The position numbers and the translations under genes are program-made. Of a stretch of DNA of 19,318 nt, positions 1-19,318 are shown in pieces (the first letter of the stretch is position 1; the number at the start of each line of letters is the position of its first letter). The stretch lies in the IMG/VR virus record IMGVR_UViG_2537561980_000013; one strand, 5' to 3'. The notes beneath the pieces were generated by a model. The model did not search any database, was not told where the DNA came from, and worked only from the letters and a program-made list of their open reading frames with translations. This DNA comes from a virus. Lineage: Duplodnaviria > Heunggongvirae > Uroviricota > Caudoviricetes.

Positions 1-387
1 CCATTCAGCGCTGCCGCCCCCGGGCGCACTGATTGCTGTTCCATCGACAAGACGCAATCTCTTTCCGCTTGTACAACCCGTAACTGCGGCGCGTACAGCA
101 AGTGTTTGTGCGGCAAGTATGCCAAACCAGTCGGCGGCATTCCGCAGCCGCTTCAGGAGAGCCACGTCAGATAATGTTGCAACGTCATGGAGCTGAGCCC
201 ATGCAGTGACTTCACGTAATGACATCCCCCCGGGGCCGTAAGCCAGCCCCAGACGTAGCAGAGTTGCAGCATCACGAATTTCGCGGCGGCGGGTTAGAGC
301 CCCGGCATTACGTGCCGAAGTATCCAGTTCTTCGGGCTTACCAATATGGGCCAGAATTGCTGACCAGTTATCGTGAGAGTAATTCAT
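1..387 (-). CDS. insL: IS186/IS4-family transposase, N-terminal 129 codons (C-terminus outside window)
   Basis: Manual minus-strand translation from the ATG at 387-385 gives MNYSHDNWSAILAHIGKPEELDTSARNAGALTRRREIRDAATLLRLGLAYGPGG..., matching my recollection of the IS186 transposase N-terminus. Not in the ORF track because the reading frame is open to the window edge. Confidence 0.8.
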   Translation of the reverse strand, partial: MNYSHDNWSAILAHIGKPEELDTSARNAGALTRRREIRDAATLLRLGLAYGPGGMSLREVTAWAQLHDVATLSDVALLKRLRNAADWFGILAAQTLAVRAAVTGCTSGKRLRLVDGTAISAPGGGSAEW

Positions 388-442
388 CGGCACGTTAAAT
401 CATATCAGGCGTAATACCACAACCCTTAAGTTAGCGCTTATG
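1..442 (-). mobile_element. IS186-like (IS4 family) insertion sequence, partial; transposase-start-proximal end
   Basis: Reverse complement of 420-442 is CATAAGCGCTAACTTAAGGGTTG, which I recall as the IS186 terminal inverted repeat. The element runs off the 5' edge of the window. Confidence 0.75.
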
Positions 443-464
443 GGATCTCTCCCCGCCAGGTCTC

Positions 465-620
465 TTACCTTTCAGATTCGTAGGCTGTGAAGACAGTGAC
501 CTCCGTCTGGCCGGTTCGGATTCGTACCTCGCAGAGGTCTTTCCTCGTTACCAGTGCCGTCACAATGACGGTTAAACAGATGACGATCAGAGCGATTAAT
601 ATCGCTTTATGCTGCTTCAT
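465..620 (-). CDS. hok: Hok/Gef-family type I toxin (51 aa, single TM helix)
   Basis: Manual translation gives MKQHKAILIALIVICLTVIVTALVTRKDLCEVRIRTGQTEVTVFTAYESER, a near match to recalled HokD/RelF and HokC/Gef. AAGGAG RBS 8 nt upstream; TAA stop at 467-465. Too short for the ORF track. Confidence 0.85.
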   Translation of the reverse strand: MKQHKAILIALIVICLTVIVTALVTRKDLCEVRIRTGQTEVTVFTAYESER

Positions 621-742
621 AGCCTGCTTCTCCTTGACCTTTTGGTCGGTAAGAGGCTAATCTACGTATGCTAAGCATAGATATGGCCTCAGATTAATGT
701 TAAGCGTCTTGCAGGACGCGTAATGTTATCTGGGGCTTTCTT

Positions 743-777
743 CTATCTGCTTTTCGGGTAATGCCTGAAGCAGATAG
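743..777. promoter_or_regulatory. Perfect 10-bp inverted repeat (CTATCTGCTT / AAGCAGATAG, 15-nt loop) in the presumed hok mRNA leader / sok region
   Basis: Read directly from the sequence. No flanking U-tract on either strand, so probably an RNA structural element or operator rather than a terminator. Confidence 0.3.
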
Positions 778-801
778 CCTCAAGCACCCGCAACGATTGT
801 A

Positions 802-1047
802 TCAATGTCTGGCTTTTTTTCTATAGAAATCACCTGGAAGGGTGAATATCCACATCAGAAGAAATGTTGCAGCAAACATGATCCCTAATGGCCAGACCGC
901 GCCAAAGAAAATCCATACTAAGATCTCCTCTGCTTGTTCTTTGCGGTCGATATCGACAAGCATTTTTCGGCTGATCATGTATACACAGAAGCCAATACAA
1001 ACATATCCTGCAAAAGCGATCGCTAACTGTAAAAAATCAGATTGCAT
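802..1047 (-). CDS. Small inner-membrane protein, two predicted TM helices, charged C-terminus (81 aa from internal ATG; track ORF extends to 1128)
   Basis: ORF track 802..1128. The ATG at 1047 has a GAGG RBS 9 nt upstream and avoids overlap with the upstream gene; the ATG at 1128 has no RBS. Hydrophobic stretches FLQLAIAFAGYVCIGFCVYMI and ILVWIFFGAVWPLGIMFAATFLLMWIFTL. Confidence 0.45.
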   Translation of the reverse strand: MQSDFLQLAIAFAGYVCIGFCVYMISRKMLVDIDRKEQAEEILVWIFFGAVWPLGIMFAATFLLMWIFTLPGDFYRKKARH

Positions 1048-1097
1048 CTCCGACCTCAAACCGAAAACGCCAGGTGACTCCAGATTAGAGCAATCTA

Positions 1098-1367
1098 TCA
1101 CCCTCTGAATCCTGCCGGTATACCCCATTGTTCGTTATCTTTATTTTTGGCTAAAACCGCATTAAGAGCTTCGTTTACCGTCATGCAATGCGGCAGATTA
1201 TCGAAGTTTGATATCCCGCCAATATCAGGAGAACGCTTGTCCTTCAGGTAAGCATATTTCCGCGCTGCCGCCTCTACTTTCTGCTTGAACTCATGTTTTT
1301 GAGCGCGTTTTTTGGATAACCGCAGATTGTCAGCCTTTGCTTTTGCCTCAGCGATCCATGAAGTCAA
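1098..1367 (-). CDS. Hypothetical basic/helical protein (89 aa)
   Basis: ORF track. Start overlaps the stop of the upstream gene by 4 nt (translational coupling). No family recognised. Confidence 0.45.
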   Translation of the reverse strand: MTSWIAEAKAKADNLRLSKKRAQKHEFKQKVEAAARKYAYLKDKRSPDIGGISNFDNLPHCMTVNEALNAVLAKNKDNEQWGIPAGFRG

Positions 1368-1942
1368 TTTTTTGAGTCTGGTCGTTCCGGCACCGCCGGA
1401 AACTGATCTTTTTGTTTTTTAACTTGTGACTTCTTATTCTTTATTGCCACGTCATCCTGACAGGGGGAGGGGGTATCATTTTGACATGGGGGTGTGGATA
1501 AAAAATTAAATAAAGCCAATGTCTTAGCGAGAACAGCTTTAACCTTGGTTGCCGCTGAAGAGATCTTTAATTTGCTTTCAATCAGCGCATTTTTGGCTTG
1601 TTGTGCGAAGGCCAAAAAGGATGGTGTAAACCGGTACAGGTTAGCGCGACGTTCACGGTGATCGCCGATAACAATCTCTACAGACAGGATTCCTTTGTTT
1701 ACAGCTTCACGGAATGCACGAACGACGGTTGATTGGCTATAACCAGTTTCTGCCGCGATCAGGCGGTGAGGCTTGTGAATGAAGTATTCACTGGTTGTTG
1801 CCGCGAGATTTGCACATTGCGACAAGATATGCCCGGCGCTACGGGATAGACCGGAGTGTGTTACAAAGCAGGCCAATTCATAGCCAGAAAAAGTAAAATC
1901 GCTCATCGTTATACAGCTCAGGAAAGTGACTTTAGCCAGCAT
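1364..1942 (-). CDS. Putative winged-HTH DNA-binding protein (regulator or replication-initiator-like); start uncertain (1942 or 1906)
   Basis: ORF track. Segment LIAAETGYSQSTVVRAFREAVNKGIL resembles a helix-turn-helix; C-terminal region is Lys/Ser/Pro-rich. Neither candidate start has a strong RBS. Confidence 0.5.
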   Translation of the reverse strand: MLAKVTFLSCITMSDFTFSGYELACFVTHSGLSRSAGHILSQCANLAATTSEYFIHKPHRLIAAETGYSQSTVVRAFREAVNKGILSVEIVIGDHRERRANLYRFTPSFLAFAQQAKNALIESKLKISSAATKVKAVLAKTLALFNFLSTPPCQNDTPSPCQDDVAIKNKKSQVKKQKDQFPAVPERPDSKN

Positions 1943-1971
1943 TACAATGCTGGTGGTTCTTACTACGTCTG

Positions 1972-2772
1972 TTAGCGCGTCGCCGCGACAGGCACCAGCA
2001 CACCAGCATCAAGCAATCGCTTCATAAGCCACTGCTGACCTTTGCCGGTTATACGAGTCGTGAAAGAAATCCTGCTTCCATTGCTTGTATCGATCACGGT
2101 TTCTTTAAGGGTGAAATACCCACGGGATATGTATTCTTGTTTGGGGACGTTCCTGCGTTCACCGGTTGCGATCAGAATTCCGTTATCACGCAACCAGGTG
2201 AAGAGATAGTTTTGGCCCAGGCCGAGCACTTTGGCATAGTTGCCGATTAGAACCCCGCTGGCGGTAGCAACGCGTTCGGCGAATTCGACTTTAGGTGCAT
2301 CCATAAGCATTTTTTGCTCCAGCCGTTGCTTTTGCTCTGCCAGGTCGGCAGCCAAACGGAGAGCTTCAGGGAGACTCTGCGGAATAGCAGGTTGTAATCT
2401 TCCAGCTCGATAGTCGATAAATGTCTGGTTTACCTTCAGCCGAAACGCGGGAGAAATCCAGCCTGCGTACTCCACAGCGAGCAATTCATGGGCAAAAGTG
2501 CCGCCGCCACGGCCTTCGAACGAAACTATGCAATTCTGCATAGTTTCTTTTTCAAGCTCTTCGATGAGCTGTTTAGCTGACAGCGTTCTTAGCCATTGAG
2601 CTGGCGCTTTATGGGCACCGAGTCCGCTCGCTCTGTGTAGAGCATTAAGGTTGTAACGGCCAGCGCGGTCGGTCGTAATTTCAACACCACAAATAACGGG
2701 CAGAGTGGTTGAAGGATCGACATTTTGATGAAGGTTTGATATATTCATATCCGCATTGAATGTTTGTTGCAT
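1972..2772 (-). CDS. Phage anti-repressor, KilA-N N-terminal domain plus KilAC/ANT C-terminal domain
   Basis: ORF track. N-terminus (YNLNALHRASG...WLRT...AVEYAGWISPAFRLKV) has the KilA-N pattern; C-terminus (LPEALRLAADLAEQK...GNYAKVLGLGQNYLFTWLRDNGIL...GKGQQWLMKRLLDAG) has the ANT pattern. GGAGA RBS upstream. Confidence 0.8.
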   Translation of the reverse strand: MQQTFNADMNISNLHQNVDPSTTLPVICGVEITTDRAGRYNLNALHRASGLGAHKAPAQWLRTLSAKQLIEELEKETMQNCIVSFEGRGGGTFAHELLAVEYAGWISPAFRLKVNQTFIDYRAGRLQPAIPQSLPEALRLAADLAEQKQRLEQKMLMDAPKVEFAERVATASGVLIGNYAKVLGLGQNYLFTWLRDNGILIATGERRNVPKQEYISRGYFTLKETVIDTSNGSRISFTTRITGKGQQWLMKRLLDAGVLVPVAATR

Positions 2773-2830
2773 TTTTTCTCCAAATTTGCATCAACCTTCA
2801 ATCACCAGCTCGAAATGGTGATTCTTTGCA

Positions 2831-2860
2831 CTTAGAAAACGAAATTTATTAGAGCAAATT
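2831..2860. promoter_or_regulatory. Conserved element copy 1 (CTTAGAAAACGAAATTTATTAGAGCAAAT), upstream of the 1972-2772 anti-repressor gene
   Basis: 15-nt core AAATTTATTAGAGCA is identical to 4510-4524, with similar flanks; read directly. Confidence 0.4.
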
Positions 2861-2903
2861 TTTCTGACTCGATCCAGATCGGGTTGGACGATCTGCTCAG
2901 AAA

Positions 2904-2934
2904 CCTGCCAGTTTGCTGGCAGGTTTTTTCTTTT
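2904..2934. terminator. GC hairpin (CCTGCCAG-tttg-CTGGCAGG) followed by TTTTTTCTTTT on the plus strand; possible bidirectional terminator
   Basis: Read directly. The strong T-tract is on the plus strand, while the adjacent stop codon (2936) belongs to a minus-strand gene. Confidence 0.5.
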
Positions 2935-2935
2935 G

Positions 2936-3979
2936 TTAACCTATTGCTACTGGTTTTAACAAACCAGCATCAAGTAGCTTGCGAGTTAACCACTGCTGGC
3001 CTTTACCCGTTAATTGGGGCGTCAGCCGTATCTGGTAGCCATTTTCATCATCCAGCACCACTTCTTTCACCGTGAAATACCCGGCGTTGATGTACTGTTG
3101 GCGCGGTACGTTTTTGCGCGCACCAAAAGCCATGAGAATGCCGTTCTGGCGCAACCATGAGAAAAGGGCGTTTTGCTTAAGTCCAACGACCTTTGCAAAG
3201 TTCCCGATCAGGATTCCATTAGCCGCTGATACCCGGTCGGCAAAATCGACTTTAGGGGCTGCGGCCACCAGCTGTTGTTCCAACTGCATTTTCTGTTCTG
3301 CCAACTCGGCAGCCAGGCGTAGAGCGTCTGGTAATGTTTGGGGGATCGATGGGGCAGGGGAGTTTGCCTGCTGCAATTCTTCCAGTTTGTCGATCAGCGA
3401 ACGGCGGACTGCTTTTGACTCGCGCGCGGCGACTCGCAGGGCTTGTTTGTAGGTCATGGTTATGACAACCATAGGCGTACCGCCACCTGGCGGCACGGTT
3501 GCACTTTTTGTGTAACCGTCCTCACCTTCTAATTCGTCGAGTATTTTTTTGATGAATTTGTTGTTCCGAACCTCTGGTTCCCCACATAACTTACGCGCTT
3601 CATTGACCATCTTTAACAGCGTCTGGCTGTCGATTGTGTCTCCAGTGTTGGAGATAACATTCACAGCTGGTGATGGCGTAGCTGAAGCAACAGATGCTGG
3701 TTTTTTAACATTCAAATTATTACTGGTCATTCTATGTGCCTCCTTTCTCATTTCTGCTGCCACCGTTGCGTAACGTAGACGTCCTTGTTCAATCAAATAA
3801 TCCCTGATCTCGGCTATCAGTAGCCTGTTGATCACAGCCTTATCTGTTCGGGTATAAAAACGTCTGGTTATCATGAAATAGTTGGCAATTGCGCCGGGGA
3901 TCTCCCGTGTCGGCATACAGGCAGTATGCAGGGCGATCGCTTCGGCTATGTCATTACGGGTGACGAGAGGTTTTTTCAT
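2936..3979 (-). CDS. Phage anti-repressor paralog with KilAC/ANT C-terminal domain and a distinct N-terminal region
   Basis: ORF track. C-terminal ~130 aa closely parallel those of the 1972-2772 product (LPDALRLAAELAEQK...GNFAKVVGLKQNALFSWLRQNGIL...GKGQQWLTRKLLDAG). AGGGGG RBS upstream. Confidence 0.75.
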   Translation of the reverse strand: MKKPLVTRNDIAEAIALHTACMPTREIPGAIANYFMITRRFYTRTDKAVINRLLIAEIRDYLIEQGRLRYATVAAEMRKEAHRMTSNNLNVKKPASVASATPSPAVNVISNTGDTIDSQTLLKMVNEARKLCGEPEVRNNKFIKKILDELEGEDGYTKSATVPPGGGTPMVVITMTYKQALRVAARESKAVRRSLIDKLEELQQANSPAPSIPQTLPDALRLAAELAEQKMQLEQQLVAAAPKVDFADRVSAANGILIGNFAKVVGLKQNALFSWLRQNGILMAFGARKNVPRQQYINAGYFTVKEVVLDDENGYQIRLTPQLTGKGQQWLTRKLLDAGLLKPVAIG

Positions 3980-4197
3980 AAAACCCCCTGAACGTCGGCA
4001 GAGAAGGGGAGGTTCCAGTAACTAAGTGAATTGCGCGAGTTAGTTGAAAAACGGGCAGTAAAAATGCAGGGGCCATCAGGCAATTGAGAGCGTGCTTCGT
4101 CTTCTGTTGCTGCGATGACGAAGTGATAGTGGTGTTTTTTGCAGGAATAGAAACGCCAGATGAATTCTTGGCGTGCGCAAGGATTGGCATTAACCAT
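3976..4197 (-). CDS. Small hypothetical protein (73 aa), translationally coupled to the downstream anti-repressor
   Basis: ORF track. GAGG RBS 8-9 nt upstream of the ATG at 4197; stop overlaps the next start by 4 nt. Preferred over the alternative-frame ORF 3954..4190. Confidence 0.5.
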   Translation of the reverse strand: MVNANPCARQEFIWRFYSCKKHHYHFVIAATEDEARSQLPDGPCIFTARFSTNSRNSLSYWNLPFSADVQGVL

Positions 4198-4496
4198 AGT
4201 TACGGCCTCGTAAGTTGATAAACAACCTGCGACCCGCTGCTAAACAGGTGGCAGGACGTGACGGGGTTAGCAGACTGGCACTTACGAAACCAGCAGGCCG
4301 AAGCCTCCCCATCACGCCCCACCATAATTCGGGCGTAACGTGGTTTACGGACACAAAAATACCGCAATATCGGAAATCTGCGGTTGTCCGCGTAAGTATT
4401 CAGGCTGCTAAACCCGGTCGCAGAATTTGCTACGACGGCGAAACTATAAGCCTGAACGATTAAAAGGTCAATATGATGCAAAAAGATAGCATTCGC

Positions 4497-4528
4497 GACT
4501 TAAAAATACAAATTTATTAGAGCAGATT
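4497..4528. promoter_or_regulatory. Conserved element copy 2 (CTTAAAAATACAAATTTATTAGAGCAGAT) at the head of the minus-strand anti-repressor operon
   Basis: Same 15-nt core as 2842-2856. A possible minus-strand -35 (TTGCAC, revcomp of 4535-4540) lies just outside it. Confidence 0.4.
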
Positions 4529-4558
4529 AGTGTCGTGCAATAGATATATTATTTGTGA

Positions 4559-4667
4559 TGAAAAATAATGCAGATGGATATTGTAACTTTAAGATGGATA
4601 TCAATAGTCGATACATAAATTAAGTTAGCAATAAACTATTAACTTAAGAAATAATGCAGATGGTGAA
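4559..4667. repeat. Direct repeats AAATAATGCAGATGG (4563-4577 and 4649-4663) in the AT-rich divergent intergenic region
   Basis: Read directly; TAAGTTAG also occurs twice (4621-4628, 4697-4704). Candidate operator sites. Confidence 0.4.
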
Positions 4668-4807
4668 CTTGTCTCTGACTTTTCAGCTATACACAATAAG
4701 TTAGGGATAGCTTATAAAAAGTTGATTAATTGATATAAGTCAATGGGAGTATTCTTGTTTACTTTCCGTTCTTGTGGTAACTTCTCGCCGGTTTTTGTTT
4801 TTCTGGG

Positions 4808-5329
4808 ATGATTCTTATGTCTAAAAAGTATACTTTATGCGCTCTTGTTGTATCTGCAATTCTTCTTTCTGGGTGTCAATCTAGCGGTGCTGATTATGCT
4901 GCCGATGTTTATGATACCGCTCAATTGAATTCGAAGCAGGAAACAAAGACAGTCAATATTATCTCTGTGCTTCCAGCTAAAGTGAAAGTTGATAATAAAG
5001 CTAATAAAGAAGCGGCACAGACATTTGGTGCGGTACTGGGAGCTGTTGCTGGGGGCGTTGCCGGTTATAATGTTAAAGGCACATCGACACTGGGTGCTGT
5101 AGCTGGCGGTACTGGTGGTGCGGCTCTTGGTGCAGCGGCTGGTTCTTTGGTTAGTGATAAAACAATTGTTGAAGGTGTTTCACTGACTTATAAAGAAGGA
5201 ACTAAGGTGTTCACTTCAACTCAAGTTGGTAAAGCATGCCAGTTTACAACGGGGCTTGCTGTGCTTATTTCAACTAAAGATAATGAAACTCGAATTCAGC
5301 CAAATGCTACTTGTCCAGAAAAGAAATAA
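4808..5329 (+). CDS. SlyB/PCP-like glycine-zipper outer-membrane lipoprotein (start 4808 or 4817)
   Basis: ORF track. Signal peptide with lipobox LLSGC; two glycine-zipper stretches (GAVLGAVAGGVAGY, GAVAGGTGGAALGAAAGS); overall architecture parallels recalled SlyB. AT-rich codon usage. Confidence 0.8.
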   Translation: MILMSKKYTLCALVVSAILLSGCQSSGADYAADVYDTAQLNSKQETKTVNIISVLPAKVKVDNKANKEAAQTFGAVLGAVAGGVAGYNVKGTSTLGAVAGGTGGAALGAAAGSLVSDKTIVEGVSLTYKEGTKVFTSTQVGKACQFTTGLAVLISTKDNETRIQPNATCPEKK

Positions 5330-5332
5330 TTT

Positions 5333-5872
5333 ATGAATAAAATTATTTTATTTCTAATCTTTTCTACGTTTAGTGTAGGCACTGCCTTGGCTAACTCGTT
5401 GCAAAGTCAAATTGCTGCTATTGCTCAAGCGGAAAATGAAGGGCGAGCTAAAGAGCAGCAAGCTGAGGATGCCAGAAAAGAACTTATTCGCCAACAAGCA
5501 CAAGCTGAACGTATTAGAAGAGAAAAAGCAGCATCTGCCGCTGCTGCACGCGAAAAACAGCGTGTTGCTGCAGAAAATGAACGTAGAGCGAAACGAGAAG
5601 CCGAGCTAGCAAATGACAAGAAGCGAGATCAAGCTTATGAGGATGAGCTTCGCAAGCTGCAACTCGAAAGCATGAAACTCGAACTGCAAGCAAAAGCGGC
5701 TCGTGTCCAGCGAGAAAACGATTTTATAGAGCAGGAGTTGAAGGAGAGAGCAGCTAAGACAGATGTAATTCAGTCTGAGGCTGATGCAAATAGAAATATT
5801 TCTACAGGAAGTAAAGATTTACTGCAAAGCGAAGGAAAAGCTAGAGAGAAGAAAGCTAGCAGTTGGTGGTAG
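5333..5872 (+). CDS. Secreted (signal-peptide) Ala/Glu/Arg/Lys-rich coiled-coil protein
   Basis: ORF track. N-terminal signal peptide (…FSVGTALA|NS), then ~150 aa of charged heptad-like sequence. Starts 3 nt after the lipoprotein stop (operon). Confidence 0.7.
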   Translation: MNKIILFLIFSTFSVGTALANSLQSQIAAIAQAENEGRAKEQQAEDARKELIRQQAQAERIRREKAASAAAAREKQRVAAENERRAKREAELANDKKRDQAYEDELRKLQLESMKLELQAKAARVQRENDFIEQELKERAAKTDVIQSEADANRNISTGSKDLLQSEGKAREKKASSWW

Positions 5873-5911
5873 TAATCACTACGATTGCGAGCATACTGTC
5901 ACAAATGACAA

Positions 5912-6519
<608 letters not shown>

Positions 6520-6529
6520 GAGGGCTGAT

Positions 6530-7141
6530 ATGGGGTTTAATGTTGCTTCAGTAAAGTCTTATGTATCTTCGGCATTAACGACGACATTATTTGGCTCCGG
6601 CGTTGGTGAACGGGAAGTTGGTAAGCTGACGTCAATCATCATGAACAAAATGCTGTTCGCGCAAGGATGGCAGTTCTCTGTCGAAGTTGATGGACTGGAG
6701 GGGGCAGACTTCTTTGCCAAAGATATTACCTACCACGATTACAGCATCGAATATGAAACGATTAAAATCGGCGGAGGGAATATCCTTCAACCAACGGAGC
6801 GTTCGCCTGGGCAGATAACAATGATGGTCAGGGATACCGTTGATGGCCTCGTTTTGGACTGGTTTAAGACGGCAAAAAGTCGGGTGATCAATCCGGACGG
6901 TACCGGGAATATACCGTCTAAATATTTGCTCAATGTGCGTATTTATCGGTTGCTGTCTTCCGGCTTAACCAAACTGGAAAATGAGATGACGGTATTCCCG
7001 GTCACTACCGGCGATGTCACCTATGCGCGAGATCAGGTTACTGAATTTAAGTCATTCCCAATGACCTTCGCATTGCACAGCACGTTTAACCAATCCTCAA
7101 GTTCTTTGGCTTCCCTTCTGGGCTTTAGCTTTTCTCTTTGA
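6530..7141 (+). CDS. Putative major tail / tail tube protein
   Basis: ORF track. GAGG RBS. Position upstream of chaperone and tape measure genes; motifs FSVEVDGLEG...IEYETIKIGGG...SPGQITMMVRD are reminiscent of tube proteins. Weak assignment. Confidence 0.5.
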   Translation: MGFNVASVKSYVSSALTTTLFGSGVGEREVGKLTSIIMNKMLFAQGWQFSVEVDGLEGADFFAKDITYHDYSIEYETIKIGGGNILQPTERSPGQITMMVRDTVDGLVLDWFKTAKSRVINPDGTGNIPSKYLLNVRIYRLLSSGLTKLENEMTVFPVTTGDVTYARDQVTEFKSFPMTFALHSTFNQSSSSLASLLGFSFSL

Positions 7142-7155
7142 ATTAAGGAGCAAGG

Positions 7156-14941: not shown

Positions 14942-17266
14942 ATGAATGACGTTACAGTTGTTACATCGGTTACTTACCCATCACCCGAGTCGTTGGCTCT
15001 GGTGGCTGATGTGCAATACCACGAACCATATCTGTCAGCCGCGCTAAACCGAAAATTCAGGGGAATTGTTGACCCTGGATTTTATGCTGGTTTCCTGCCG
15101 AAGCCTGGCGGTGGGATGAACCTGTTAATCACCTCAGTGGATGGTGATAAAACCGCTGGCGCGGCGTCAGTGAATATTGGTGAATTCTACCAGGTAACTA
15201 TTCAGCAGCGTAAGGATATTTCTCTTGCACTTAGCGCAGGTAAGAAATATGCAATTGTGCTGAAGGGAAGATACCTCCTTGGAGAAGATTCTTATCAGGT
15301 TAATACCGCGTCACATATTCATGCGGCTGAATTTGTTGCCAGAACCTATACCGATTCATATCAGTTAGGAGATGGGGAACTGCTTGTTTGTACGGTGAAT
15401 ATCCCTGCTGGCGTATCTGCTATTACTCAGGAAATGATAGATGTATCCGACCGCATCGATCTCACGATAGGCATTGAAATTTCCGACTCTGTAACCAGTA
15501 CCAGAAGTGATGTCGCTGCAAGTTCGCTGGCGGTTAAAAAAGCCTACGATCTGGCGAAAAGCAAGTATACGGCGCAGGATGCAAGCACAACACAAAAGGG
15601 ATTAGTTCAGCTCAGTAGCGCAACTAACAGCGACAGCGAAACAATGGCGGCTACCCCTAAAGCCGTTAAGTCTGTAAAAGAGCTGGCTGATACCAAAGCG
15701 CCAATAGAAAGCCCAGAGCTTACAGGAACGCCAACCGCGCCTACGGCAGCGCAAAGTACAAACAGCACGCAGATCGCAAACACAGCCTTTGTTAAGGCAG
15801 CTATAACAGCACTTATCAATGGTGCTCCTGGAGCACTGGATACGTTGAAAGAAATTGCGGCTGCGATCAATAACGACCCGAATTTCAGCACAACTATCAA
15901 CAATGCCCTGGCTCTCAAAGCGCCTTTGGCAAGCCCTGCATTAACGGGTATCCCTACTGCACCTACCGCTGCACAGGGCACAAACAATACGCAGATCGCT
16001 ACGACTGCTTACGTACGGGCTGCTATATCTGCATTGGTCGGCTCATCACCAGAAGCTCTTGATACCCTGAATGAGCTTGCAGCAGCACTTGGCAATGACC
16101 CGAACTTTGCGACAACAATGACAAATGCGCTGGCAGGGAAACAGCCACTTGATGCAACTTTAACAGCGCTCGCTGGCCTTACGACTGGCGCAAATAAATT
16201 GCCGTACTTTACCGGTACAGACACTGTTTCCCAGACTGATTTAACGTCAGTCGGTCGCGATATCCTGGCTAAAACAAGCACACTGGCTGTTATCCAATAC
16301 CTTGGTTTAAGAGAAATCGGTACCAGCGGTGAAAAGATCCCCCTGTTGAGCACGGCTAACACATGGAGTGCACGCCAGACTTTCAACGGTGGGATCACCG
16401 GGGCGCTGACAGGGAACGCCGACACCGCGACGAAATTGAAAACAGCACGCACGATTGGCGGTGTGGCATTTGATGGTACTGCGAATATTAATTTACCTGG
16501 TGTTAACGTTGCGGGGAATCAGAATACATCCGGTAACGCGGCTACAGCGACCAAGTTACAAACCGCGAGAACTATAAATGGGGTGTCGTTTGACGGTTCT
16601 AAAAACATTGAGCTAACTCCAAGGTCTATAGGCACGATCAACTCAACAACCATGTCTTTTATTGGTGGTGCAGGATGGTTCAAGCTGGCAACTGTAACCA
16701 TGCCACAGGCAAGTTCCGTAGTTTACATAAGCCTGATTGGTAGTTCTGGATATAATGTTAACTCCCCTATGCAGGCTGGTATATCTGAACTTGTTCTTCG
16801 TGCGGGAAATGGGAATCCAAAAGGTCTTACTGGTGCGTTATGGCGACGGACATCGGTTGGATTTACTAATTTTGCATGGGTGAATACATCCGGTGATACC
16901 TATGATGTTTATGTTGAAATAGGTAATTACGCCACGGGTGTAAATATCCAGTGGGATTATACCAGTAACGCCAGCGTAACGATTCATACATCACCAAATT
17001 ACACAGTAGATAAACCAACTGGTCTTACTGATGGAACGGTATATGTTATTTACAGTTCGCACATTAAACCGACCGCCACGGATGTCGGCGCATTACCAAT
17101 AACCGGAGGAAATCTCAACGGCGGTTTAACGGCTACTGGTGAGATCGTTTCAAGATATGCAAATGGTTTCCGCATTGCCTATGGAAGCTACGGATTCTTT
17201 ATCCGAAACGATGGCTCAAAGACATATTTCATGTTGACCAATTCGGGTAACAGCCTGGGAACCTAT
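14942..17266 (+). pseudogene. Side tail fibre gene (P2 gpH / lambda Stf / Mu S type), 3' end truncated by IS2
   Basis: Track ORF 14855..17353; the real start is the ATG at 14942 with AAGGA RBS. Conserved blocks QKGLVQLSSATNSDSETMAATPKAVK, SPALTGIPTAPTAAQGTNNTQIATTAYV, ALDTLNELAAALGNDPNFATTMTNALAGKQPLDATLTALAGL, KLPYF, VGRDILAK match recalled tail fibres. The frame runs into IS2 at 17267 and ends 29 codons later. Confidence 0.8.
15707..16150 (+). repeat. Internal tandem duplication in the tail fibre (2 x 222 bp, 74 aa each)
   Basis: Two consecutive units of [A/E]SPxLTGxPTAPTAAQxTNxTQIAxTA[FY]V[KR]AAIxAL...P[GE]ALDTL[KN]E[IL]AAA[IL][NG]NDPNF[SA]TT[IM][NT]NALAxKxPL read directly. Confidence 0.6.
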
Positions 17267-17277
17267 TGGATTTGCCC

Positions 17278-18183
17278 CTATATTTCCAGACACCTGTTAT
17301 CACTTAACCCATTACTGGCTTGCTGCCGTAGATATTCCCGTGGCGAGCGATAACCCAGTGCACTATGCGGATGCCATTCGTTATAATGCTCGAATGCCTC
17401 TGCAAGGTTCTTTGCTGCCGTTAACCCGTCTGGTTTGGGCATGACACTGATGTAGTCACGCTTTATCGTTTTCACGAAGCTCTCTGCTATGCCGTTACTC
17501 TCCGGACTCCGCACCGCCGTGTTCTTCGGTTCAAGCCCCAACATCCGGGCAAACTGCCGTGTTTCATTAGCCCGGTAGCATGAACCATTATCCGTCAGCC
17601 ACTCTACTGGAGACGCCGGAAGCTCGTTGCCGAAACGGCGTTCCACCGCTCCCAGCATGACGTCCTGTACTGTTTCACTGTTGAAGCCGCCCGTAGTGAC
17701 CGCCCAGTGCAGTGCCTCACGGTCACAGCAGTCCAGCGCGAACGTGACTCTCAGTTTTTCTCCGTTATCACAGCGGAACTCGAACCCGTCAGAGCACCAT
17801 CGCTGATTACTTTCTTTCACAGCCACTCTGCCGGTATGTGCCCGTTTCGATGGCGGTACAGCGGGTTTTCGCTCAAGCAACAGCGCATTCTGGCGCATGA
17901 TCCGGTAAATACGTTTGGCATTGATCGCAGGCATACCATCAAGTTCGGCCTGTCTGCGAAGCAGCGCCCATACCCGACGATAACCATATGTGGGCAGCTC
18001 TCCGATAACATGGTGTATACGGAGAAGCACATCCGTATCATCTGAGTGACGGCTGCGGCGACCATCTTTCCAGTCATCGGTTCGTCTGAGAATGACGTGC
18101 AACTGCGCACGCGACACCCGGAGACAACGGCTGACTAAGCTTACTCCCCATCCCCGGGCAATAAGGGCGCGTGCGCTATCCAC
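17278..18183 (-). CDS. insD: IS2 transposase OrfB (InsD), 301 aa; normally expressed as an InsCD fusion by -1 frameshifting
   Basis: ORF track. Translation ([34 protein letters not shown]...) matches recalled IS2 InsD. Confidence 0.9.
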
Positions 18184-18506
18184 TTTTTTGCCCGCCCATA
18201 TTCAACGGCTTCTTTAAGGAGTTCATTTTCCATCGTTTTTTTGCCGAGCAGGCGCTGGAGTTCTTTAATCTGCTTCATGGCGGCAGCAAGTTCAGAGGCA
18301 GGAACGACCTGTTCTCCTGCGGCCACAGCAGTAAGACTTCCCTCCTGGTATTGCTTGCGCCAGAGAAATAACTGGCTGGCTGCCACACCGTGTTGCCGGG
18401 CAACAAGGGAGACTGTCATTCCCGGTTCAAAACTCTGCTGAACAATAGCGATCTTTTCCTGTGTAGTACGCCGTCTGCGTTTCTCCGGTCCTAAGACATC
18501 AATCAT
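18141..18506 (-). CDS. insC: IS2 OrfA (InsC), 121 aa
   Basis: Track ORF 18141..18551 is extended upstream; the internal ATG at 18506 gives [47 protein letters not shown]..., matching recalled IS2 InsC. Confidence 0.9.
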
Positions 18507-18780
18507 CTGCTCTCCAATGACTAGTCTAAAAACTAGTATTAAGACTATCACTTAAATAAGTGATATTGGTTGTCTGGAGATTCAGGGGGCCAGTCTAACG
18601 GGTGATGAAGTCGTATCATTAGATAAACACATCAACACCAGTGCTACTGATACAGATCAAATACAAGCATTTATAGTTTCAACATGGATGGCGCCTTTTC
18701 AAAATGATATGTATTCAGAAGATAATCCTATCTCACCTTACTATAAAATTGAATGGTAGACGATTGACCAAATAAATCAT

Positions 18781-18810
18781 AACGAGATACTTTTATAATA
18801 GTATCTCGTT
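18781..18810. promoter_or_regulatory. Perfect 10-bp inverted repeat (AACGAGATAC-N10-GTATCTCGTT) with TATAAT in the loop, 31 bp upstream of the lytic transglycosylase gene
   Basis: Read directly. Candidate operator overlapping a -10 hexamer, or a weak terminator. Confidence 0.4.
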
Positions 18811-18841
18811 CCTTTCATTCAATCCTCACACATGAAAAAAT

Positions 18842-19318
18842 ATGCGCTCACCAAAAGTTAAATTCTTAACCATCTTCACGTTTTGTATATTTATTACAAA
18901 AATGTCTTTCGCCAGCAACTCTTGCTCTAATGAATCAGGAACAATGTTCAGAATCGAACCAAATTTAATTAAAGCTATCGCTCTTGTTGAAAGCAATCTA
19001 AAAAAGGATAGCATAGGCAAGAACAGAGATAAGAATAACAACATAAAGAGTTTAGATTATTGGTTAATGCAGATAAACCAGATGCATATTCCCCTGTTAA
19101 AAAAACGTGGAATAATAAAAGATGAACGAGATTTGTTAGATAACCCTTGTCTGAACATTAAAATAGGAACCGAGATTTTATATAACCATTTTTCACGTTG
19201 TGGAGTAACGTGGCAATGCCTGGGGACTTATAATGCGGGTTTTGCAATGGATAACCAAAAAAAGAGACAGCAATATGCCCCAAAATATATATTGTATATA
19301 CCAGGCTTAATGAACTAG
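18842..19318 (+). CDS. IagB/IpgF/EtgA-family specialised lytic transglycosylase with signal peptide (158 aa)
   Basis: ORF track. Signal peptide; family-1 lytic transglycosylase motifs ALVES (catalytic Glu), WLMQIN, GTYNAGF. Very AT-rich coding sequence; stop at 19316-19318. Confidence 0.8.
   Translation: MRSPKVKFLTIFTFCIFITKMSFASNSCSNESGTMFRIEPNLIKAIALVESNLKKDSIGKNRDKNNNIKSLDYWLMQINQMHIPLLKKRGIIKDERDLLDNPCLNIKIGTEILYNHFSRCGVTWQCLGTYNAGFAMDNQKKRQQYAPKYILYIPGLMN

Follow-up and report, generated by a model that had tools for sequence, protein, structure and literature searches.

The window, by which we mean the whole stretch of 19,318 nucleotides analysed, corresponds to bases 1-19318 of the 2012 draft contig AKNH01000050.1, whose start falls inside another IS. 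It carries a truncated tail-fibre gene of a P1-like phage-plasmid, a complete IS2 and a part of the ETT2 island (Table 1). The idea of an entire 19-kb contig with nothing but a 721-bp stub behind IS2 was considered and discarded: the contig, 180,356 bp long, runs on into ETT2.

Table 1. Features of the window, from left to right, with the basis of each assignment.
Feature	Position	Strand	Basis
Partial IS4-family insertion sequence beside hok of the P1-like plasmid	1-443	-	complete element in sister contig L026
S', proximal part (775 codons) of the tail-fibre gene S, P1-like, interrupted by IS2	14942-17266	+	translation, Pfam, homology
CCTAT half-site, left repeat of the S::IS2 target duplication	17262-17266		intact S and AIGE01000007.1
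IS2, complete, IS3 family, 1331 bp	17267-18597	- (transposase reads leftward)	ends, ORFs, profile matches, K-12 comparison
insD / orfB, 301 aa, DDE catalytic part	17278-18183	-	full-length match to NF006918
insC / orfA, 121 aa	18141-18506	-	NF006928
A AAA AAG slippery heptamer, -1 frameshift fusing orfA to orfB (presumed role)	18183-18189	-	GGGCAAAAAAGTGG present
ACGGG half-site, right repeat of the ygeI::IS2 target duplication	18598-18602		empty and filled sites in relatives
'ygeI, codons 20-72 and stop codon	18598-18759	+	translation TGDEVVSLDK...KIEW*
IagB-like lytic transglycosylase of ETT2, 158-aa form	18842-19318	+	NF011856, Pfam SLT

The boundaries of IS2 are exact, from 17267 (TGGATTTGCCCC...) to 18597 (...GGGGGCCAGTCTA), and its termini, TGGATTTGCCCC and TAGACTGGCCCCC, are the same in 10 other copies. 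In an ungapped comparison with K-12 IS2H the element is 95.6% identical, with no gaps, and many copies that carry an IS3-family or IS2 annotation match it at 99.85% identity. Its size and identity fit the reference IS2 (about 1331 bp, at least 95% nucleotide identity). The identity of the two ORFs was judged by the IS2-specific NCBIfam cut-offs, which both of them pass: orfB reaches 709.7 bits with NF006918 'IS2 transposase TnpB' (cut-off 597), and orfA 276.4 bits with NF006928 'IS2 repressor TnpA' (cut-off 229). The heptamer presumably serves the frameshift known generally for IS2 and the IS3 family, and a programmed frameshift is annotated at this site in closed relatives. The terminal inverted repeats are imperfect, as expected of IS2 (about 40 bp), with arms at 17275-17306 and 18557-18588 that are 78% complementary. 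Two bases, T17751 and C18192, both synonymous, distinguish this copy from the IS2 of every relative at both parental sites described below, where G/A is found in all of them; the K-12 IS2 has C18192 only. As a discriminator between a recombinant and a collapsed consensus these positions turned out to be uninformative, being synonymous, absent from relatives and only half shared with K-12.

By its length, its orfA/orfB arrangement with an A6G frameshift site and its imperfect terminal repeats, the element resembles an IS2 simple insertion, and the parental sites do carry a 5-bp duplication. The window copy differs from this scheme as a sequence variant and, above all, by its two distinct half-sites: the 5-bp target duplication is missing, and CCTAT on the left and ACGGG on the right match at 0 of 5 positions. 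This absence, reported by the initial annotation, is confirmed here for a complete element. It does not remove the element from IS2, as the duplication marks the primary insertion event. Since the window IS2 has two different half-sites, it is not itself the product of a primary insertion.

The DNA on the left of IS2 is P1/P7-like. It displays the icd-ant-kilA-repL and sit-pmgA-bplA-16-R-S synteny, with 95-97% identity to P1, P7, RCS47 and others, and the P1-specific Pfam families Gp16, tail_fiber_R and RepL; parA and parB are located on a sister contig (L026). S' corresponds to the S gene of P1/P7. It matches Phage_fiber_2 and Gp34_trimer, it is 99.3% identical to the intact tail-fibre genes in NZ_CP116245.1 and NZ_CP097001.1, and its ORF runs on for 28 codons inside IS2 until a stop at 17353. 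At the other extremity of the window, the IS4-family element is complete in the same sister contig (11556-12668), where it encodes a 370-aa transposase matching NF033592, and homology to P1-like relatives devoid of this element ends at window position 444.

In the closest closed relative, ETEC1731, the P1-like element is 99.6% identical and forms a free circular plasmid of 99,950 bp. More generally, the P1-specific block pmgA-bplA-16-R is plasmid-borne at 473 of the 483 places where it occurs in closed genomes. The other 10 (~2%), in closed E. coli genomes, are chromosomal P1-like elements, among them that of NCCP 15734, which carries the closest intact S gene. The left side had been described as a prophage; it is a P1/P7-like phage-plasmid and probably not an integrated prophage, and the event at the junction would fuse two replicons.

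On the right of IS2, all 721 bases (721/721) are identical to CV839-06. The 'ygeI translation equals residues 20-72 of K-12 YgeI. The IagB-like ORF that follows reaches 105 bits with NF011856, under the cut-off of 208, and Pfam SLT also matches; the transglycosylase is annotated in CV839-06 and K-12, and as frameshifted in closed relatives. The ETT2 gene order ygeH-ygeI-transglycosylase-...-orgA/prgH matches according to the annotation of these two genomes, and beyond the window the source contig carries YscJ- and PrgH-family genes. The right side is the ETT2 type III secretion island, which is horizontally acquired, AT-rich and chromosomal. The horizontally acquired segment anticipated there thus receives a name, with a ygeI remnant, an IagB-like transglycosylase and then orgA/prgH-type genes. 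The shift in base composition across the element is likewise real: GC amounts to 0.460 at 16267-17266 and 0.469 at 1-17266, 0.527 within IS2 and 0.334 at 18598-19318, the earlier figure of about 50% for the left side being slightly high.

Comparison with relatives lacking the IS2, proposed in the initial annotation, is informative at both sites. On the plasmid side, intact S contains a single CCTAT followed by AATAATTTAAGG. In the sister draft contig AIGE01000007.1, IS2 is preceded by CCTAT and followed by CCTATAATAATTTAAGG, i.e. CCTAT is present on both sides, and distal S, lydAB and darA come next. On the chromosomal side, the empty ygeI site (K-12 and L007) reads GCGAATGCA-ACGGG-TGATGAAG, with one ACGGG, and five genomes carry the filled site ACGGG-IS2-ACGGG: CV839-06 and ETEC1731, both closed, UGAN01000002.1, AIGC01000017.1 and AIGD01000017.1. 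The IS2 of these relatives has the same ends to the base, with perfect duplications at both parental sites.

These alignments establish the window IS2, at the level of its sequence, as a hybrid of two insertions resident in this E. coli lineage, S::IS2 on the plasmid (CCTAT) and ygeI::IS2 on the chromosome (ACGGG), the exchange point being placed somewhere inside the 1.3 kb of common IS2 sequence. Because each half-site belongs to a separate documented IS2 insertion, 'inter-IS2 recombination', one of the two routes initially envisaged, is right as a formal description; the other one, a deletion, is not, the right junction being that of ygeI::IS2. The lack of a duplication does, as had been supposed, signal a junction of unrelated DNAs, with half-sites that trace to two separate IS2 insertions. 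Neither the junction S'-IS2-'ygeI nor its reciprocal is present in 5,426 complete E. coli genomes. No plasmid with the S'-IS2 junction was found in PLSDB, in which the sole partial match, in Sv' of ETEC1720, represents another IS2 insertion.

How this hybrid arose can be read in two main ways, and we are inclined, by a modest preference, to see in it an assembly mis-join across the IS2 repeat rather than a genuine cointegrate of plasmid and chromosome formed by IS2 x IS2 recombination. The assembler would have led both flanks, that of the plasmid and that of the chromosome, through the collapsed multicopy IS2, and the exchange would have taken place in silico. In the cell, the plasmid would retain S'-IS2-S'' and the chromosome ygeI'-IS2-'ygeI. 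That the junction might be an assembly product had not been envisaged in the first reading; the window belongs to a draft contig, and the sister drafts use three partners.

The S'-IS2 junction is also found in five near-identical sister draft contigs, in which it is differently resolved. The partner of S' across IS2 is S'' in AIGE, ynfB (at another resident chromosomal IS2) in AIGC and 'ygeI in the window, and the AIGA and AIGD contigs break within IS2 after S'. AIGC and AIGD assemble ygeI::IS2 canonically, and other assemblies of the lineage (L047, L048 and L012-L015) end exactly at the IS2 boundary. One unique flank is thus joined to different partners over the same repeat in independent assemblies of near-identical genomes. 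As in a repeat-induced chimeric contig, the join passes via a multicopy repeat of 1.3 kb, the partners vary and the window junction does not occur in closed genomes. ETEC1731, with a plain ygeI::IS2 beside a free P1-like plasmid, was counted on the side of an artefact, and so were the mostly plasmid-borne state of the P1-specific block in closed genomes, the start of the contig inside another IS, and T17751 and C18192, found in neither parental copy of any relative.

Several observations speak against a mis-join. The same drafts cross IS2 correctly three times, in ygeI for AIGC and AIGD and in S for AIGE. These correct crossings suggest that long-range (mate-pair) information was available, and the hybrid joins might then be based on evidence. 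Unlike a typical repeat chimera, the contig is long on either side of IS2 (17 kb and ~161 kb), with no short chimeric stub. In addition, plasmid and chromosomal copies of an identical 1.3-kb IS do commonly recombine through RecA, and IS2 copies without duplication occur in closed genomes of the lineage.

The main competing reading, which we hold to be quite possible although somewhat less than probable, is that RecA-dependent recombination of S::IS2 with ygeI::IS2 integrated the whole P1-like phage-plasmid in ETT2 in an Hfr-like manner. In such a cointegrate, two direct IS2 copies would bracket the integrated element. The window would represent one hybrid junction, CCTAT-IS2-ACGGG, and the reciprocal junction ygeI'-ACGGG-IS2-CCTAT-S'' would be expected about 100 kb away. 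Integration of F via IS2, IS3 or gamma-delta homology, as well as the ability of P1/P7 to integrate and give integrative suppression, are precedents that count in its favour. The flanks of the window IS2 are indeed halves of two pre-existing insertions, plasmid-borne in one case and chromosomal in the other. The lineage has both parental insertions, and one half of each is joined exactly in the window, with no new duplication, as predicted for an Hfr-type fusion; the difference is that the plasmid here is not F but a P1-like phage-plasmid, and that the supposed fusion is represented by one hybrid junction in a draft contig. The contig is unbroken from the P1-like DNA to the chromosome, and the canonical IS2 crossings elsewhere in the same assemblies indicate that linking information was probably used.

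P1-like elements do occur on the chromosome, as the places mentioned above illustrate. In a survey that lists 12 chromosomal P1-like regions, the cause of integration is unclear and 'remains to be clarified', Cre-lox or a transposable element being suggested as the route (Pfeifer & Rocha 2024, PMC10879196). As in those cases, P1-like structural and maintenance genes are contiguous here with chromosomal DNA, but those genomes are finished, whereas the linkage here comes from one draft contig and the sister drafts disagree.

Other observations weaken the case for a cointegrate. AIGC would call for an integration of its own, at another IS2 (ynfB), and AIGE is unintegrated. Two fixed integrations would have to be admitted among a few near-clonal isolates, to be compared with the low frequency of chromosomal P1-like elements in closed genomes. 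Neither junction is found in any closed genome. Finally, a simple recombinant of the G/A parental IS2 copies should lack T17751/C18192. As for short reads, they cannot tell a mis-join from a cointegrate: the four junctions at the IS2 boundaries are identical in the two configurations, and consequently short contigs (e.g. Logan SRR063724_63) do not discriminate between them. That Logan contig matches the window at 100% identity, and run SRR063724 therefore probably derives from the source strain, whose assembly is GCA_000268125.1.

A deletion is far less probable. In this reading, IS2 located in an integrated prophage made an adjacent deletion, or an intramolecular inter-IS2 deletion, with loss of the distal end and fusion of the tail region to the island; we consider it very improbable. 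IS2-bounded deletions are real in the lineage: ydfD'-IS2-ynfB, with flanks GATAA/ATATC, is present in closed CV839-06 and ETEC1731, and on the closed ETEC1731 plasmid ~3.2 kb of S is replaced by IS2, with flanks GACAC/GTGCA. Yet the DNA on the left derives from a P1-like phage-plasmid and that on the right from chromosomal ETT2, which are not neighbours on one molecule. Given the P1/P7-like nature of the phage-plasmid, an intramolecular IS2-mediated deletion does not fit. Moreover, a deletion would make a new right junction, whereas the actual one equals, to the base, the pre-existing ygeI::IS2 with its own duplication; on this comparison, an adjacent deletion already appears largely refuted. 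We also see no sign that a distal prophage end was removed, as the initial annotation proposed: sister strains have distal S along with the other P1 genes, and AIGE01000007.1 continues after IS2 with distal S and what remains of the P1-like genome. Transpositional cointegration via IS2 circles or dimers was considered as well and rejected, as it would create a new target junction and an existing one is reused here.

A simple IS2 insertion with mis-set ends or with a duplication decayed by mutation has practically no chance of being the explanation, the ends being exact over 1331 bp with termini identical in the other copies, the same ends carrying perfect duplications in relatives (ACGGG/ACGGG and CCTAT/CCTAT), so that the offset termini once feared are not the case, and the flanks being not diverged versions of each other but borders of two unrelated DNAs. 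No point in support of it was found.

Under either reading, a mis-join or a cointegrate, the mechanism is already known, and that of a cointegrate, homologous recombination of one IS copy with another, has stood in textbooks since the work on Hfr strains. Should the junction be a product of assembly, the 180-kb contig wrongly assigns 17 kb of plasmid sequence to the chromosome, and the lesson would be that an IS lacking its target duplication in a draft contig is not to be called a rearrangement before its linkage is checked. If the junction is real, for which we would tentatively allow a chance of about one in three, a P1-like phage-plasmid already crippled by an IS2 inserted into its tail-fibre gene would have been captured in ETT2 by recombination of that IS2 with a resident chromosomal one, and likewise, in AIGC, beside ynfB. 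The locus would then document the IS-homology-driven integration of a P1-like phage-plasmid, a rare event in view of its frequency in closed E. coli genomes (~2%), and, with the AIGC case included, it would offer a concrete and apparently recurrent route from P1-like phage-plasmid to integrated prophage.

The element at the junction is IS2 by family. It is complete, displays imperfect terminal repeats and an AAAAAAG frameshift site, and its gap-free identity of 95.6% with K-12 IS2H makes it an IS2 variant. The five bases that adjoin its ends read CCTAT to the left and ACGGG to the right; this copy therefore has no target duplication, as proposed in the initial annotation together with a sharp change in composition, which is also found (GC 0.47 on the left, 0.53 within IS2 and 0.33 on the right). 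The absent duplication reflects the history of this copy and is no ground for leaving the IS2 family.

Features of the window and their positions
Feature	Position	Strand	Remarks
IS4-family insertion sequence	1-443		start of contig lies within it; beside hok
repL	1098-1942	-	P1 lytic replicon initiator
sit	8119-11807		injection transglycosylase
bplA	12160-13581
IS2, complete	17267-18597	- (genes)	1331 bp; TGGATTTGCCCC... to ...GGGGGCCAGTCTA
orfB	17278-18183	-	above IS2-specific NCBIfam cut-off
orfA	18141-18506	-	above IS2-specific NCBIfam cut-off

A P1/P7-like phage-plasmid makes up the left 17.2 kb. Its genes here are icd, ant, kilA, repL (frameshifted), sit, pmgA, bplA, 16, R and S, the last encoding the tail fibre, with 95-97% identity to P1, P7 and RCS47. 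S is interrupted by IS2 after codon 775, the reading frame running on for 28 codons inside the element, and homologues of this proximal part (S') are mostly borne by plasmids of ~90-100 kb. The right flank is chromosomal DNA: ygeI codons 20-72 ('ygeI), then an IagB-like transglycosylase belonging to the ETT2 type III secretion island. The flank matches pig strain CV839-06 at 721/721 bases. With IS2 left out, S' (at 17264-17266) and 'ygeI (at 18598-18600) share a reading frame; as the sequences are unrelated, we take this as a coincidence (1 in 3 chance).

A full copy of the IS4-family element, encoding a 370-aa DDE transposase, lies on a sister contig (L026, 11556-12668); with this element at the contig start and IS2, the 17-kb plasmid segment is edged by two different ISs. 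Illumina draft contig AASAUA010000060.1, of the same sub-lineage, covers ~448-17265 of the window. RepL is split into ORFs of 192 and 89 aa (281 aa unsplit), and since nine contigs, belonging to several unrelated assemblies, share this split, it is probably true and not a sequencing error. The sit product (~1130-1240 aa in relatives) is broken into 219 and 996 aa by an A5 instead of an A6 run at 8742; sister drafts AIGA, AIGD and AIGE have A6 and AIGC A5, and the 996-aa form is also found on the closed ETEC1731 plasmid. At 12932, bplA lacks 12 bp, in frame, that all four DEC sister assemblies retain (473 vs 477 aa). This deletion, common to the window, GCA_012248985.1 and Logan SRR063724, is a sub-lineage marker and places the window's strain outside the four DEC isolates.

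Each half-site corresponds to half of an ordinary insertion. The intact S gene of NCCP 15734 reads ...GGGAACCTATAATAATTTAAGG, with a single CCTAT, and AIGE01000007.1 shows a simple insertion with perfect duplication, CCTAT|IS2|CCTATAATAATTTAAGG, after which come distal S, lydAB and darA. Similarly, K-12 ygeI (GCAACGGGTGATG) contains a single ACGGG, and ACGGG|IS2|ACGGG, with ygeH to the left, is present in CV839-06, ETEC1731, UGAN01000002.1, AIGC01000017.1 and AIGD01000017.1; this ygeI::IS2 boundary is the exact break point of many Illumina drafts of the lineage. Because each half-site matches a known insertion, the window combines the left junction of S::IS2 with the right junction of ygeI::IS2. 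This combination excludes mis-set IS2 ends. Also excluded are an adjacent deletion and a transpositional cointegrate, either of which would create a new junction instead of reusing an existing one. The remaining option is an exchange inside IS2 homology between the plasmid and chromosomal copies. The initial annotation was right that IS2 unites unrelated DNAs, here a P1-like plasmid and chromosomal ETT2, but wrong in invoking a deletion by which an integrated prophage lost its end, and it left an assembly origin unconsidered.

The window is bases 1-19318 of draft contig AKNH01000050.1 (180,356 bp, GCA_000268125.1), which runs on into ETT2; two other sequences from this contig (L033 and L046) are 100% identical to it, gap-free. 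We lean towards a mis-join by the draft assembler through a collapsed IS2 repeat. The exact S'-IS2 read-through protein also occurs in four draft contigs of the E. coli DECA collection (AIGA, AIGC, AIGD and AIGE), which, judged by accession order, are probably DEC7A-E. Their differences from the window are one SNP, the bplA indel, a homopolymer length and two IS2 bases. Among these near-identical genomes the same flank is resolved differently: it continues into distal S (S'') in AIGE, into ATATC-ynfB in AIGC and into ACGGG-'ygeI in AKNH, and the contig ends within IS2 in AIGA and AIGD. The ynfB partner joined in AIGC01000010.1 is a second resident chromosomal IS2; closed CV839-06 and ETEC1731 have it at the identical junction, with flanks GATAA/ATATC. 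AIGC and AIGD assemble ygeI::IS2 canonically. Other assemblies of the sub-lineage stop at the IS2 edge. Neither the window junction nor the predicted reciprocal IS2|CCTAT-S'' was found in 5,426 complete E. coli genomes (0 in both cases). In the closest closed relative, ETEC1731, the P1-like element (99.6% identity over pmgA-R) is a free circular 99,950-bp plasmid beside a plain ygeI::IS2, and, of the 483 places where closed genomes carry the P1-specific pmgA-bplA-16-R block, 473 are on plasmids. These findings count towards a mis-join. Nevertheless, sister drafts traverse IS2 correctly three times, suggesting that linking information was available, and AKNH01000050.1 extends far on either side of the element.

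A real plasmid-chromosome cointegrate formed by IS2 exchange is a serious possibility, which we hold to be the lesser one. Replicons commonly recombine through shared IS elements, closed genomes of the lineage do contain IS2 copies without duplication, and P1-like elements do occur on chromosomes. The window IS2 carries T17751 and C18192, both synonymous, where all copies in relatives, whether in S or in ygeI, have G and A, and these bases are not expected in a plain recombinant of two parental copies. They may stem from private mutation, gene conversion or consensus error. K-12 IS2 shares C18192 but not T17751, and none of the 5,426 complete genomes has an IS2 with fewer than two mismatches to the window copy. 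Short reads do not discriminate here, as both configurations hold the same four IS2 boundary junctions. All other readings, taken jointly, appear very improbable.

Other IS2 and P1-like cases were encountered. In CV839-06 (NZ_CP025753.1, 3070-4400), as in ETEC1731, an IS2 without duplication links truncated Qin-like ydfD to the ynfB upstream region. The ETEC1731 plasmid (NZ_CP122822.1) carries at 12001-13331 an IS2 of opposite orientation flanked by GACAC/GTGCA, without duplication, which replaces ~3.2 kb of S and leaves its first ~289 and last ~670 nt, a genuine case of deletion associated with IS2 within this plasmid lineage. On the P1-like, IncY plasmid of pig ETEC1720 (NZ_CP122864.1, ~6740-7980), an IS2-family element adjoins a tail-protein gene at its 3′ end. 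We interpret this tail-protein gene, which neighbours a cin-like recombinase gene, as the copy of S on the invertible C segment. The tail-fibre genes that such plasmids carry seem to be recurrent IS2 targets. The closed NCCP 15734 chromosome (NZ_CP097001.1, ~1-28400) contains a P1-like element whose S gene is the closest intact one (99.3%), then truncated ddrA, TnAs1 and IS26, and may represent a real chromosomally located P1-like element.

There is nothing new in kind at the window junction. In its hybrid half-sites the arrangement matches a putative Hfr-type replicon fusion by IS homology, and it fits a repeat-induced chimeric contig equally well. If real, it would document one way in which the chromosome captures a P1-like phage-plasmid.
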